Made by a program: the position numbers and the translations under genes. Shown piece by piece: positions 48,567 to 58,160 of a stretch of DNA of 64,000 nucleotides (positions are counted from its first letter, which is position 1; every line of letters starts with the position of its first letter). Source of the stretch: a virus. The DNA lies in IMG/VR virus record IMGVR_UViG_3300050821_003663, positions 39,678-103,677 of that record. One strand, given 5' to 3'. The notes under the pieces are model-generated. The model had not been told where the DNA came from and ran no database searches. It worked only from the letters and a program-made list of their open reading frames with translations.

Positions 48567-48831
48567 CCGCCGGATGACAAAGAAGTACCTCCTCACTGTC
48601 TTGATGGAAGAAGGCGGCGAAGTTGTTCAGGCGGCCGCGAAGTGCCAGCGATTCGGCTGGTCGCGCCATGAGCCGGGGTACGGCGTCAACCATGAAGTTT
48701 TGGCGAAGGAGATCGGGGATCTGCTGGGAGTTGCCGATGCGCTCGGGCTCGACCGCACCCTGGTAAGGCGCAACAGGGCTTCAAAGATGGAGCGAGTGTA
48801 TAAAGCCGCGAAAGAGAGGAATAAACGCTAA
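48559..48831 (+). CDS. MazG-like NTP pyrophosphohydrolase
   Basis: LMEEGGEVVQA..K..RFG...LAKEIGDL. Confidence 0.75.
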   Translation: MVSRRMTKKYLLTVLMEEGGEVVQAAAKCQRFGWSRHEPGYGVNHEVLAKEIGDLLGVADALGLDRTLVRRNRASKMERVYKAAKERNKR

Positions 48832-49649
48832 TGGCGAGACTCAACGATTTGTCACACGGGAAGCTAGACGCTCCCAAGCTGGACCCACGGGACATCATCA
48901 TCCGCAAGGGGTTCAATTACCGCGACACCACCAGTCCGGAAGCTATTGCACATATGCATTGGCTGAAGGACTCAATCAAAGAGGTTGGCGTCCAGAAGCC
49001 GCTGCAGGTGGAGTACGACGACGGCAAGGTGTACCTGGTTGACGGGGAATGCCGTCTGCTGGCCGCCAGGCAGCTCTGGAAGGAGGGTATCGAGGTGTAC
49101 GTCCCGGTGATGCAGATTCGCGGGGACGAGGCGGAGATCCGCGCCAAGAGCATGATCGCCAACGGCGCCCTACCGCCAACAATGATTGAGTTCGGCAAGG
49201 CGGCCGCTCAGCTCCGCGACTGGGGCTGGAGTGAGGGGAGGATCTCCCAGTTCACCCCACCGCACGTCAGGGCGACCAAGAAGGCCGGCCAATACGTCAG
49301 GGATGCCCTAGAACTCAACGATGCGCCCCTGGACGTGAAACAGGCTGTCCGGGAGGGTATCGACGGCGTGAAGATCACGCCAGCGCTTGCAGTGGCCGTT
49401 TCCAAGGGCAACCGGATCAACGCCGGGGAGATCTTGCGGAATGAGGCTGCCAAGGCGAAGGCCAAGGGCAAGAAGGTAGCTCACCGGCCGAAGGGCGAGG
49501 GGAAGGCGACAAAGGCTGCAAAGGCTGCCGTTGCTAAGACGGTGGATCTGATGGAGATTGGCGACAGAATGGCGAGCAACGTTCTGGCCAACACCTCGTA
49601 TCCGGCGATTTGCCAACTGGCCCGCCAGTGGCAGAAGGCGAGGGGATAA
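48831..49649 (+). CDS. ParB-like protein (ParB N-domain plus HTH)
   Basis: GFNYR...LKDSIKEVGVQKPL...LVDGECRLLAA; GWSEGRIS...QYVRDAL HTH-like segment. Confidence 0.8.
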   Translation: MARLNDLSHGKLDAPKLDPRDIIIRKGFNYRDTTSPEAIAHMHWLKDSIKEVGVQKPLQVEYDDGKVYLVDGECRLLAARQLWKEGIEVYVPVMQIRGDEAEIRAKSMIANGALPPTMIEFGKAAAQLRDWGWSEGRISQFTPPHVRATKKAGQYVRDALELNDAPLDVKQAVREGIDGVKITPALAVAVSKGNRINAGEILRNEAAKAKAKGKKVAHRPKGEGKATKAAKAAVAKTVDLMEIGDRMASNVLANTSYPAICQLARQWQKARG

Positions 49650-53341: not shown

Positions 53342-53550
53342 CCGATAGAGGTTTTGTGTTGCAAATAATGCCGCAGGCCCGATACATGAACCTTGCGGGA
53401 CACCACTGCATTGACGACCACCACAACGACCGCTATTTGGCCTATGCAGCATCGAGTCGGGCGGCGGCATGGCGTGAAGCCAAGAAGTTCTTAGAACGCC
53501 GCATAGCTGAAGGAAAGCTGAAGGTCAAACCGCAGGAGGAACCTAAGTGA
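53338..53550 (+). CDS. hypothetical protein
   Basis: GTGA coupling, SD AGGAG. Confidence 0.5.
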   Translation: MTDRGFVLQIMPQARYMNLAGHHCIDDHHNDRYLAYAASSRAAAWREAKKFLERRIAEGKLKVKPQEEPK

Positions 53551-53972
53551 ACCGATCAATACCGCTAATCCTTCTCCTGGCACTGCTCGTCGGCTGCCGA
53601 AATGAAAAACCGGTGACGCCCGCGCAGTCTACCGCGAACGTGAAGGTGGCTATCGTTACAGAGATTTCATGCAAGGCAACCGTCCCCTGCGTCTGCGAGT
53701 ACTGGGTTAAGGGAGAGCGTCAATCCTGCGGACTGATGAAGCCTGGGGAGGTGCGCGAGATTATCAGCCCTTTCCCCTTCCAGTTCTATCCGGGGTGCGC
53801 GGACTCGCTCTCTGGTTCAGACGAGGGCTGCCCACCGTTCGGGGCGAATTACAAAGAGGGCAAGGGGTTCACTCCTGGTAACGTCATCCAGCAGACAACC
53901 AACGGCAGTTGCGGTGCGAATATCGTGGGAGCTGGCGGTTCGGTCTCAATCAACTGCGGAGGCAAAAAGTGA
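53547..53972 (+). CDS. Cys-rich lipoprotein
   Basis: Lipobox LVGC; multiple Cys. Confidence 0.7.
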   Translation: MNRSIPLILLLALLVGCRNEKPVTPAQSTANVKVAIVTEISCKATVPCVCEYWVKGERQSCGLMKPGEVREIISPFPFQFYPGCADSLSGSDEGCPPFGANYKEGKGFTPGNVIQQTTNGSCGANIVGAGGSVSINCGGKK

Positions 53973-54745
53973 AGAAATTCCTATCAAGTCCCGATGTCTG
54001 TATCATCGCCGGATTTCACATGGGGATGCTTGCCCTGGCGTTGCTTCTTGGCTGCAACAGCTTCCACCTTCCTGACGCCACGGGTCCAGCTAAGCCCGCG
54101 ATAGCACCAGATTGTGGCTGGTGTATTTACGGTGGCGCCTGCGGTTACTGCGATAGTGACATGAAGAAATGCGCGGATGGTTCCGTTGTCCTGAAAACAG
54201 GTTCTTGCCCCCTCGATGAGGATAAGCCACCGGTAGTTGATTCGAAGGGATGGGCGGAGTGGCATATTGACCCACCGCTACCGGGTGGAACGCCGATTAT
54301 CGAGTCTAAGGGTAGCCCTGCTGGCAAAGAGCTGTGGAACGAGGGCGATACCATCTCCACGGGAGGCGAGCAAACTCCGCCAGTGAAGCCATCAGAGCAG
54401 GGATTCTCCAAGGGAACCGATACTCCACCGAAGGGGTGGGCATTGCTTTTAGGTGACTATCACGAAGACCCAACCAAGCCCGCACCCGATTCCGCGAGTA
54501 TCGAGAACGAGACGCAGAAGGTGGTCATGCTCGGCTACGAAGAATACTCCCACCTTCGATCACTCCGTCAGGCCGTGGTGGATGAGGAGAAGAGGCTGGC
54601 GGTGAAGTACGGGGCAAATCCCGGTCACCAGATTTGCGATATGACCTGCGTTGCTATACAGCTTCCCGACCACTACGAGTTCCACGGGCAATTCCTGCTG
54701 ATCGACAAGGTTGCACCGGAGCAAACTAAGGGAGAACCGAAATGA
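53969..54745 (+). CDS. Cys-rich lipoprotein
   Basis: Lipobox LLGC; CGWCIYGGACGYC..CADGS..CP. Confidence 0.6.
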   Translation: MKKFLSSPDVCIIAGFHMGMLALALLLGCNSFHLPDATGPAKPAIAPDCGWCIYGGACGYCDSDMKKCADGSVVLKTGSCPLDEDKPPVVDSKGWAEWHIDPPLPGGTPIIESKGSPAGKELWNEGDTISTGGEQTPPVKPSEQGFSKGTDTPPKGWALLLGDYHEDPTKPAPDSASIENETQKVVMLGYEEYSHLRSLRQAVVDEEKRLAVKYGANPGHQICDMTCVAIQLPDHYEFHGQFLLIDKVAPEQTKGEPK

Positions 54746-54907
54746 TTAGATTGATTGCGTGGGCGGTGAGGATTGGGGTGGTTGCGATGCTGGCATGGGG
54801 GTATGCGCATGGTCGATAAGATCGCCAAGCTGGTACTGGGGGCGCTGCTGACGGTCATGGTCGTGGTGAGCGCGTGGTGTATCTACGTAGACTGGAGGTA
54901 ACGGGCG

Positions 54908-55144
54908 ATGAGTGTTGAGGATAGAGTGCGAGCGCTGGTAGCGGAGAGGGTTCCGGATCCGGCCGCTGTTACGCGGGAGAGCGATCTGGAACGCGATCTG
55001 GGTGCGATCTGGCTGGATAAGCTCGGGATCGTGATGGCGGTTGAGGATGCCTTCGGCGTCGACATCGCCGATGAAGACGTCGACGGGCTGAAAACAGTTG
55101 GTCAAATCATTGACTACGTTGAAAAAAAGCTGGTGGTGAACTAG
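54908..55144 (+). CDS. acyl carrier protein homologue lacking the phosphopantetheine Ser
   Basis: Full-length ACP-like sequence (DLGA-IW-LD..IVMAVEDAFGVDIADED...KTVGQIIDYV); SD GGAGGT. Confidence 0.8.
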   Translation: MSVEDRVRALVAERVPDPAAVTRESDLERDLGAIWLDKLGIVMAVEDAFGVDIADEDVDGLKTVGQIIDYVEKKLVVN

Positions 55145-55390
55145 TGGCGGGCGCGATAGCCAAACCGCGAGTGACGAGGATCATCCTGTCCAGGCGGAGG
55201 GTGCGATGGGTTATCTTGCATCAGGGTGGGATCGTCGGCTTCAAGAAGCAAACCCAATTCTCCTCATTCCAAACGGCTTGCTTCATCGCTGGACTGGTAA
55301 GTAATCCTCCGCTGGGGTGACCCCTTGCAAGTGCAACGATCTCGTGAGATGTTGTGAGAGTCCAAATTTTGGACTTGGAGGGTTACACAC

Positions 55391-56485
55391 ATGTCACTAT
55401 CAAACGAAGGTCGTTCTAACGCGATTGCCAAGCTGGAAGGCATCATCACCAAAGGCCGCGAGTCGGCTCTCACCGTCATCAACCACGTAATGACCAACCA
55501 ACCACAGGATGCCCTGGCTAAAGCCTCGGCACTGGGGTTTACCGCTGACCACACAGCAAAGGCTGTCCGGATGCAGTTCCCGACGGTCGACCAGCGCCAC
55601 GATGTTCGCATCCACCGCCACGCTCTCGGGCAGGTAGCACAGTTCGTCGATATGCCAATGAAGTTTGTTGACTCCCTGCAGGATGAGAAGTCGGACTGGG
55701 GACGCGAACTGCTAGCCCACAACCTCAACACGATCTTCCACGAACGCGGAGGCAAGGATCGCCGTCTGGTGCGCACCATCAACGGCGAGGTTCGCGGATT
55801 CCTGTCGGACACTTACCGCCGCCTGGACTCACGCCCCATTGTGGAAGCCTTCGCAATGGCTGTGCAAGCGAAGGGCGCCCAACCCTACGCGGGCCACGTC
55901 ACCGACACCAAGATTGCAATTCAGGCAATCTTTCCCCACGTGTTTGAGCCTGTCCCTGGCGAGATGGCAGCCTACGGCCTGAGCCTCGAAAACTCAGACT
56001 TTGGCAACGGAGCCCTGAGCGTTCGCGCATACCTCCTGCGGATCTGGTGCAATAACATGGCCCTGACCGAAGAGACGATGCGCCAAATCCACTTGGGCAA
56101 GCGTCTCGAAGACAACCTGATCTACTCGCAGCGTACGTACCAGCTCGACTCCGACACCACCGTGAGCGCGTTGAAGGACGTCATCAACCTTCAGCTCGAT
56201 CACAAGGCACTGGAGACGCGGATCGACCAGTTGAAGGTAGCGGCCGGTACGGCTGTGACCATCGAAGCCGCTCGCACACAGCTCAAGAAGGTGCTGAACA
56301 AGGGCGAGGCGGAAGAGGCGATTCGCGTGTTCGAGTCGAACGACGAGTACAACCTCCCGGCCGGCAACACGGCTTGGCGGATGTCGAACGCGATCTCCTG
56401 GATTGCGAATGCGAGCGATGTTTCGACAGAGCGAAAGCTGGAACTGAACCGCATCGCAGGCGACGTTTTACCGAAGGCAGCGTGA
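55391..56485 (+). CDS. DUF932-like phage protein
   Basis: HALGQ, LVRT...VRGFLSDTYRRLD, LENSDFG.GALSV..YLLRIWCNN. Confidence 0.65.
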   Translation: MSLSNEGRSNAIAKLEGIITKGRESALTVINHVMTNQPQDALAKASALGFTADHTAKAVRMQFPTVDQRHDVRIHRHALGQVAQFVDMPMKFVDSLQDEKSDWGRELLAHNLNTIFHERGGKDRRLVRTINGEVRGFLSDTYRRLDSRPIVEAFAMAVQAKGAQPYAGHVTDTKIAIQAIFPHVFEPVPGEMAAYGLSLENSDFGNGALSVRAYLLRIWCNNMALTEETMRQIHLGKRLEDNLIYSQRTYQLDSDTTVSALKDVINLQLDHKALETRIDQLKVAAGTAVTIEAARTQLKKVLNKGEAEEAIRVFESNDEYNLPAGNTAWRMSNAISWIANASDVSTERKLELNRIAGDVLPKAA

Positions 56486-57875: not shown

Positions 57876-58160
57876 ATGAGCAGATTCGACACGGTTGGAA
57901 AGGCAGCAACGAAGGTAGACAAAGACGGCGACCGCATTCGGGTCACCTACCATTCGACGACGGTAGTCGATGTAAATGCAAAGACGATCCGCTTAAACAC
58001 TGGGGGATATTTCACCAACACCACCAAGGTTCGTATGAACCAAGCCTCCAAGCAGTTTAGCCTTGGATTCCGCGTCTACTCGATGAACTGGAGCTGGTTC
58101 GTTGACTACAAGGGGAAGACTATCAATTTTGAAGGTAATGTCTTAGAACTCCGGCGCTAA
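57876..58160 (+). CDS. hypothetical protein
   Basis: SD GGAGGG. Confidence 0.65.
   Translation: MSRFDTVGKAATKVDKDGDRIRVTYHSTTVVDVNAKTIRLNTGGYFTNTTKVRMNQASKQFSLGFRVYSMNWSWFVDYKGKTINFEGNVLELRR

Follow-up and report, generated by a model that had tools for sequence, protein, structure and literature searches.

A phage genome of 103,677 bases carries a small gene whose product resembles AcpP, the acyl carrier protein (ACP) of bacterial type II fatty acid synthesis, except that the serine that takes 4′-phosphopantetheine is replaced by tryptophan. The locus therefore raises the question of whether this product, here called P0001, comes from a genuine and maintained gene and, if so, what an ACP that carries nothing would do for a phage. 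The window analyzed here is a stretch of 64,000 nucleotides, bases 39678 to 103677 of the virus record, which has direct terminal repeats and is rated complete. Positions refer to this window unless stated otherwise, and the features of the locus are given in Table 1.

Table 1. Features in and around the ACP-like gene, with positions in the window.
Feature	Position	Strand	Remarks
Predicted Cys-rich lipoprotein	53547..53972	+	Lipobox L-V-G-C; no family match
Predicted lipoprotein	53969..54745	+	Lipobox L-L-G-C; no Pfam, PHROG or PADLOC match
25-aa hydrophobic peptide	54742..54819	+	ATGA overlap with the preceding lipoprotein gene; no family
30-aa single-pass membrane peptide	54809..54901	+	Start overlaps stop of the 25-aa ORF; hydrophobic core by eye
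Shine-Dalgarno sequence GGAGG	54894..54898	+	9 nt 5′ of the ATG; overlaps TAA of the upstream 30-aa ORF
ACP-like ORF	54908..55144	+	78 aa, ATG start, TAG stop, intact; encodes P0001, a Ser-less ACP-fold protein
GCGATCTGG, three copies	54981, 54993, 55004 (54981..55012)	+	9-mer; third copy is codons 33-35
Codons ATC TGG (Ile34-Trp35)	55007..55012	+	At the AcpP Asp35-Ser36 columns, first turn of helix II
Doubtful 58-aa basic ORF	55144..55320	+	GTG overlaps the ACP-like stop (TAGTG)

The gene and its product

The preliminary description of this DNA had reported an intact ORF with a good Shine-Dalgarno sequence, whose product could be aligned with AcpP from end to end by eye. Both observations hold: the frame runs from ATG to TAG over 78 aa behind a GGAGG sequence (Table 1), and HMMER comparisons with ACPs of the PDB align residues 2 to 75 of P0001 with residues 1 to 75 of 2ehs (E 5e-13) and the protein end to end with E. 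coli AcpP (1l0h/1acp; E 6e-9). The product is acidic (pI 4.2). It scores 26.6 bits against the Pfam PP-binding model (PF00550; cut-off 20.8), with the whole domain covered, and matches PHROG 5934 'acyl carrier protein' at E 2e-14. The NCBIfam ACP models gave 54 to 66 bits, slightly below their curated cut-offs (59.3 bits against 70.45 for TIGR00517 and 66 bits against 71 for NF002148, with the score also under the cut-off for PRK00982), which is expected since the best-conserved motif is absent. By these alignments, P0001 is a true ACP homologue. Codon log-likelihood at the gene is above zero in the 54908..55144 frame only, and the codon score is 0.13 versus 0.28 +/- 0.10 for the long genes of the phage.

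In the alignments with PDB ACPs, 'lgaIWLD' of P0001 stands opposite 'lgaDSLD', in agreement with the earlier reading of GADSLD as GAIWLD, and the Trp codon (TGG) occupies positions 55010-55012. Among 105 canonical ACPs, the same two columns hold Asp in 103 sequences and Ser in all 105. Ser likewise fills its column throughout an alignment set of 150 canonical ACPs that had been chosen for having Ser, and is kept in 80 of 80 cellular ACP loci recovered by a genome scan. These comparisons support the view that P0001 is an ACP homologue that would be unable to receive 4′-phosphopantetheine. The altered codons do fall, as the preliminary description had pointed out, in the third copy of the 9-mer GCGATCTGG. 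This 9-mer is present in six copies in the window versus 1.04 expected, a count reached in none of 100 shuffles. Copies 1 and 2 at the locus read xGC-GAT-CTG-G (S/R-D-L), and copy 3, in another frame, coincides exactly with codons A33-I34-W35.

An AF2 model of P0001 (pLDDT 91.9) contains four helices, at residues 3-12, 35-49, 55-60 and 64-77, and because helix II begins at residue 35, Trp35 is predicted to be its first residue, like Ser36 of AcpP. The top Foldseek matches to this model were all ACPs (TM 0.8-0.9). The best among them were AcpP chains in enzyme complexes (TM 0.85-0.9, rmsd 1.0-1.5 Å), the TM value for E. coli AcpP was about 0.88, and identity to solved ACPs was 34-40%. Complex I and MmpL5-AcpM, in both of which ACP is a structural subunit, were also represented among the fold matches of solved structure. 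Note that the alignment supplied to AF2 consisted mostly of canonical ACPs, which biases it toward an ACP-like model. Nonetheless, the single-sequence model of the ESM Atlas (pTM 0.80) has the same fold, and both models place P0001 in the four-helix ACP fold.

Relatives without the serine and the residues they retain

A phmmer search of 1.84 billion representatives returned 6,951 ACP homologues, and the single score better than E 1e-30 was that of the query itself. The only close relatives of P0001 are three metagenomic proteins with 45-54% identity, all of which lack the Ser. The nearest single-domain relative, P0008 (77 aa, 51% identity), has V-V-W-L-G in the same register, and two proteins recovered by word-index searches, P0154 (80 aa, 53-54% identity) and P0169 (78 aa, 45% identity), have C-I-W-L-V and C-G-G-I-E-W, the latter with Gly at the Ser column and Trp one helical turn further on. 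The four motifs are thus AIWLD, VVWLG, CIWLV and CGGIEW, and the D-L-E-R-D-L repeat that precedes the motif in P0001 is missing from P0008 and P0154. When motif columns 33-40 were removed from an alignment of 101 ACP-domain sequences, the four members were monophyletic (SH-aLRT 89), and the Ser was therefore lost before they diverged to about 50% identity. Scans of IMG/VR with P0154 and with P0169 gave no matches, a scan of IMG/VR with an alignment of P0001 and P0008 gave distant ACPs only, and one metagenome scan and one genome scan gave canonical ACPs only, at identities of at most about 50%.

To describe what the clade has kept, we use AcpP numbering (P0001 numbering plus one) and compare its members with 105-150 canonical ACPs from the same searches. 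All four members share the replacement of D35 by I, V or G, of S36 by W or G, and of E41 by G or A, and three of them also have a changed D38 (G, V or E). When the 27 columns with conservation of at least 60% across 150 canonical ACPs are considered, clade members keep 13-19 residues, against a canonical mean of 22.5. Non-conservative losses lie nearly all at columns 30-40 (AcpP 31-41), and changes outside these columns are mostly conservative (L/V/I, D/E, T/S). The hydrophobic core, the acidic pair E47/E48 and the helix III residues are retained: E47, E48 (as E or D; E46 and D47 of P0001, at the end of helix II), F50 and Y71 are present in all four members, position 56 is D or E, and T64 is either kept or replaced by Ser. 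The proteins are full-length at 77-80 aa, and three computed pI values are 4.05-4.27. Judged informally, this pattern is what would be expected if selection had maintained the fold while the cofactor site was changed.

The losses are clustered at residues that contact AcpS, namely D35, S36, E41 and in part D38, and two of these positions bear directly on loading. A recent report places D35 and E41 on the ACP surface that contacts AcpS and states that either D35N or E41A by itself keeps AcpS from modifying E. coli ACP in vivo (10.1101/2025.01.28.635281). Among the acidic AcpS contact residues, D35 and E41 are lost throughout the clade and E47/E48 are kept. Because the Ser has become Trp and the AcpS contacts D35 and E41 have been neutralized, P0001 should not be open to phosphopantetheinylation.

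Several other sequences with unusual motifs were encountered. Three IMG/VR phage ACP homologues lack the Ser (L008:265-585, L040:5968-6228 and L043:5989-6240), with the motifs G-A-D-D-Q-D, D-M-D-D-L-D and G-F-D-L-L-D, respectively, and are unrelated to the P0001 clade. Another locus, L045, at first resembled a Trp variant ('GWLD' in tblastn) and was rejected, as its ORF carries a normal DSLD after an insertion. The counts of W (12) and Y (5) in the top 150 phmmer matches are inflated by the Trp of the query itself and give no estimate of frequency. A separate clade of six D-W-L-D ACP-like proteins (P0062, P0063, P0086, P0107, P0142 and P0153) comes from soil-type metagenomes; its members carry Trp at the Ser column, mostly in the context 'DLGADWLDRLEL' (slightly different in P0062 and P0063), and have N-terminal extensions. 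Four bacterial ACP homologues, P0032, P0046, P0133 and P0037 (WP_211324014.1, Chitinophaga dinghuensis), have D-W-L-D or D-Y-L-D in place of D-S-L-D behind an N-terminal signal peptide or lipoprotein signal, and would be exported, unmodifiable ACP-fold proteins.

Two further observations concern ACPs more broadly. Of 80 cellular ACPs with the same helix II/III and helix IV word patterns as the clade, about half belong to Armatimonadota (Fimbriimonadales) metagenome-assembled genomes, which is a weak hint as to where the gene arose or which host the phage infects. Metagenomic sequences at L082:2103-2909, L088:5941-6696 and L094:191-892 encode proteins of about 235-265 aa in which ACP helices II-IV ('MGLDGVEIVMAVEDAF...') come first, a membrane-like segment follows, and ACP helix I with its loop as far as '...DLGLS' stands last; this order resembles that of an ACP circularly permuted with the break at the phosphopantetheine Ser.

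Genomic setting and comparable proteins

Its assignment as a phage is supported by genes for an SU10-type portal and adaptor, a PNKP-type phosphatase, a B12-binding radical SAM enzyme, glycosyltransferases, a Ro60/TROVE protein, an HNH endonuclease, a DnaB-like helicase, an exonuclease and a ParB-like protein (gene at 48831-49649). Four IMG/VR fragments of 5-15 kb encode relatives of its portal (58-71% identity) but carry no ACP-like gene, and the sole cultured match of the portal is that of Bacillus phage PK1 at 23.5% identity. IMG/VR relatives of the neighboring gene for a phrog_1362 protein and of a 447-aa gene were not found.

A tightly packed series of same-strand genes, for two lipoproteins and two tiny membrane peptides, ends with the ACP-like gene (Table 1). 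The start codon of the second lipoprotein could be ATG 54020 or a GTG at 53969 that overlaps the stop of the preceding gene, and the 30-aa membrane peptide has no family match better than E 0.005. The overlap of GGAGG with the end of the upstream 30-aa ORF is an arrangement that predicts translational coupling of the ACP-like gene. The 58-aa ORF that follows has a codon score of -0.10, versus 0.28 +/- 0.10 for the long genes of the phage, and no family match; it is possibly a partner of the ACP-like gene, or possibly not a gene. Further downstream lies the gene for the phrog_1362 protein (55391-56485), and neither this protein nor the upstream neighbors have a function recognizable by Pfam, PHROG or PADLOC. 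Between the ACP-like gene and the Shine-Dalgarno sequence of the phrog_1362 gene is a 17-bp perfect inverted repeat around GTCCAAATTTTGGAC (55359-55375).

Enzymes that would load or use an ACP are missing from what was searched. The complete 103.7-kb phage has one PP-binding domain and no ACPS-family PPTase (PF01648), and Pfam and PHROG scans of about 60 phage ORFs revealed no Fab, Lpx or Pls-type enzyme. PADLOC returned no defense or anti-defense matches. The endolysin families Phage_lysozyme, SLT and Amidase_2 were not found in the phage, and no spanin, holin or endolysin family was detected near the ACP-like gene or anywhere tested in the phage.

Elsewhere in the window, positions 57876-58160 encode a 94-aa protein that matches a family without assigned function, Kyanoviridae Gp96 (PF23790, E 2.5e-12; phrog_554). 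The B12-binding radical SAM enzyme adjoins a PLOD-type glycosyltransferase (genome 22241-25484; L101:3241-6484), and a polysaccharide pyruvyl transferase is found with a GT2-type transferase (genome 36866-39514; L101:17866-19552). These two gene sets, which are distant from the ACP-like gene, look like surface-glycan modification genes.

The closest cellular counterpart of P0001 is AcpP of bacterial type II fatty acid synthesis (PF00550, TIGR00517), especially in its apo form, to which P0001 is equal in length and four-helix fold, and P0001 is likewise acidic. The two also share L-G-A before the motif, E47/E48, F50, D56 and Y71. However, P0001 has I-W for D35-S36, G for E41 and A for E49, should be unable to become holo, and is encoded by a phage with no PPTase and, among about 60 scanned ORFs, no Fab genes. 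Canonical phage ACPs (PHROG 5934), such as those of Ralstonia phage phiRSL1, Burkholderia phage BCSR5 and Brevundimonas phage Bajun, are likewise products of small stand-alone genes in large phages and are 36-42% identical to P0001 in these three records, but they mostly retain D-S-L (49 of 53 IMG/VR alignments, from 52 loci), which the P0001 clade lacks.

A full-text literature search returned no paper on Ser-less phage ACPs, and the nearest described case is the mitochondrial ACP (mACP) of Plasmodium falciparum, in which the Ser is replaced by Phe113 and for which no PPTase exists (PMC8547962). This mACP binds Isd11-Nfs1 without a prosthetic group, and Phe113 lies in the Isd11 interface, where F113A abolishes binding (PMC8547962). 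P0001 similarly has an aromatic residue (Trp35) for Ser within a preserved fold. The Plasmodium protein, in contrast, is eukaryotic and organellar and has a known LYR-protein partner, whereas no LYR-like partner was seen for P0001. The resemblance is best described, from this comparison, as a functional analogy with independent origins.

A second comparison is provided by gp510 of Escherichia phage 121Q (AIT14400.1), a 139-aa protein annotated as hypothetical that has F-D-W-L-D at the motif. An ACP profile matches gp510 at E 6e-7, and P0001 matches the gp510 family, phrog_18343, at E 3e-6. In 121Q (KM507819 244865-246017; L189:2866-4018), gp510 is followed directly by the Rz-like i-spanin gp511 (phrog_1152, E 7e-29) and then by the lipoprotein gp512, which carries the lipobox I-S-G-C and is probably an o-spanin. 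Like P0001, gp510 has Trp at the Ser position, an ACP fold and a location near predicted envelope genes, but it differs in having an extra N-terminal part and in keeping the Asp. Pairwise BLAST of P0001 against gp510 gave no similarity, and we therefore regard the two as separate lineages. Because no spanin, holin or endolysin family was detected anywhere tested in the phage of P0001, the parallel with 121Q is restricted to co-transcription with envelope proteins.

Possible roles of an ACP that would carry nothing

We favor, with confidence slightly better than even, the reading in which the ORF is a real and maintained phage gene and its product is an apo-locked ACP that docks on a partner normally served by ACP. 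Since P0001 appears unmodifiable and would carry nothing, it could act only by binding. Its target would be a protein to which ACP or acyl-ACP is normally delivered, most likely a membrane-associated ACP client of the host, and we lean toward such a client because the operon contains lipoproteins and membrane peptides. Ile34-Trp35 would form a hydrophobic knob at the site where the prosthetic arm would leave helix II and could take the place of that arm in the interface, in the manner of Phe113 of Plasmodium mACP. Docking would bring the acidic end of helix II and helix III, which are retained, onto a basic patch of the partner, which would thereby be trapped in a complex inaccessible to AcpS and AcpH. 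We infer these three elements, namely partner binding, the role of the Trp and the identity of the partner as a host ACP client. The Trp is probably not indispensable, because one clade member has Gly at the Ser column. The proposed link to the membrane or to lysis comes from gene context, given that the neighbors are without recognizable function and that endolysin and spanin families were not detected.

The preliminary description had proposed a non-modifiable ACP decoy that might block lipid or lipid A synthesis, change ppGpp signaling or sequester ACP-dependent defense factors, and had named Fab enzymes, LpxA/LpxD, PlsB, SpoT and MukB as proteins that ACP binds. The non-modifiable character is strengthened by the absence of Ser across the clade, whereas a decoy action on any of these proteins is conjectural and the target could equally be a phage product. 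However, a plain AcpP look-alike titrating every ACP client is too simple, because the clade has also lost D35 and E41, the residues that contact AcpS, and this loss may weaken docking on classical Fab enzymes. Over-produced apo-ACP is reportedly toxic in E. coli through inhibition of PlsB, a finding attributed to Keating, Carey and Cronan in 1995, and on that ground a decoy is plausible.

The main rival to a host-directed docking protein is a subunit or adaptor of a phage-encoded complex, in which phage proteins would use the ACP fold as a small acidic docking module, comparable to the ACP subunit of complex I or MmpL5. Its partners could be the co-transcribed lipoproteins, the membrane peptides, or a lysis or envelope module. 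Translational coupling of the gene to those of two lipoproteins and two tiny membrane peptides argues for this role, as do the placement of 121Q gp510 directly 5′ of an Rz-like spanin and a lipoprotein, the match of P0001 to the gp510 family, and the ACP subunits of complex I and MmpL5-AcpM among the fold matches. We nevertheless hold it only tentatively and well short of even, because the upstream lipoproteins are unlike spanins and the spanin, holin and endolysin searches were negative both near the gene and anywhere tested in the phage. A host-captured ACP gene that lost its Ser and persists without function is improbable. A neighborhood without functional annotation, a codon score below the phage mean and NCBIfam ACP scores under the cut-offs would suit such a relic, but four lineages at about 50% identity after the loss of Ser keep the 77-80-aa frame, the core and most of the conserved residues. 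Moreover, non-conservative change is concentrated at the motif, and a strong Shine-Dalgarno sequence, operon coupling and a confidently predicted fold also speak against decay.

The remaining two explanations are less probable still. PPTases act on a Ser at the N-terminus of helix II, and a protein that is still a carrier would have to be loaded at another residue or by other chemistry. Ser25, which is conserved in the clade, could be proposed for this purpose, but ordinary ACPs also have A, S or T at column 25 and the phage lacks a PPTase, so we consider this very doubtful. Least probable of all is that an error of sequencing or assembly, or a recent mutation templated by the repeat, produced the change at the third GCGATCTGG copy, the caveat raised in the preliminary description on the basis of the exact coincidence of codons 33-35 with that local copy. 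This caveat no longer stands. Three relatives at 45-54% identity were examined for D-S-L and none has it, and because all three nearest relatives share the absence of Ser, with (V/I)-W-L in two of them, the loss is neither an artefact nor a recent accident of the repeat. In those two, V-V-W-L and C-I-W-L come from other samples, occupy the same register and occur without the D-L-E-R-D-L repeat, and the change at E41 is inexplicable by a local slip.

Returning to the favored reading of an apo-locked, partner-docking ACP, the P0001 clade is, as judged from its alignments, a new independent lineage within the known ACP family, of a kind that is unpublished as far as we found. A broader proposal, which we regard as speculative and unlikely to hold in full, is that Ser-less ACP look-alikes, with Trp or another residue for Ser, would be general, convergent phage effectors whose docking face and knob plug the acyl-ACP tunnel of envelope-lipid enzymes such as lipid A or phospholipid acyltransferases, thereby weakening the host envelope or timing its breakdown together with co-transcribed lysis or envelope genes. 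The exported D-W-L-D and D-Y-L-D ACP-like proteins of Bacteroidota would then be the bacterial counterpart.

ACP is among the best-connected small proteins of bacteria, and a viral copy that can only dock is therefore a natural candidate for a host-takeover tool or regulator. The P0001 clade represents an independent and conserved Ser-to-Trp lineage from an environmental phage of roughly 104 kb, and it reveals both the joint loss of D35, S36 and E41 and which residues stay. Together with gp510 of the culturable coliphage 121Q, it makes the binding targets of non-carrying phage ACPs directly testable.
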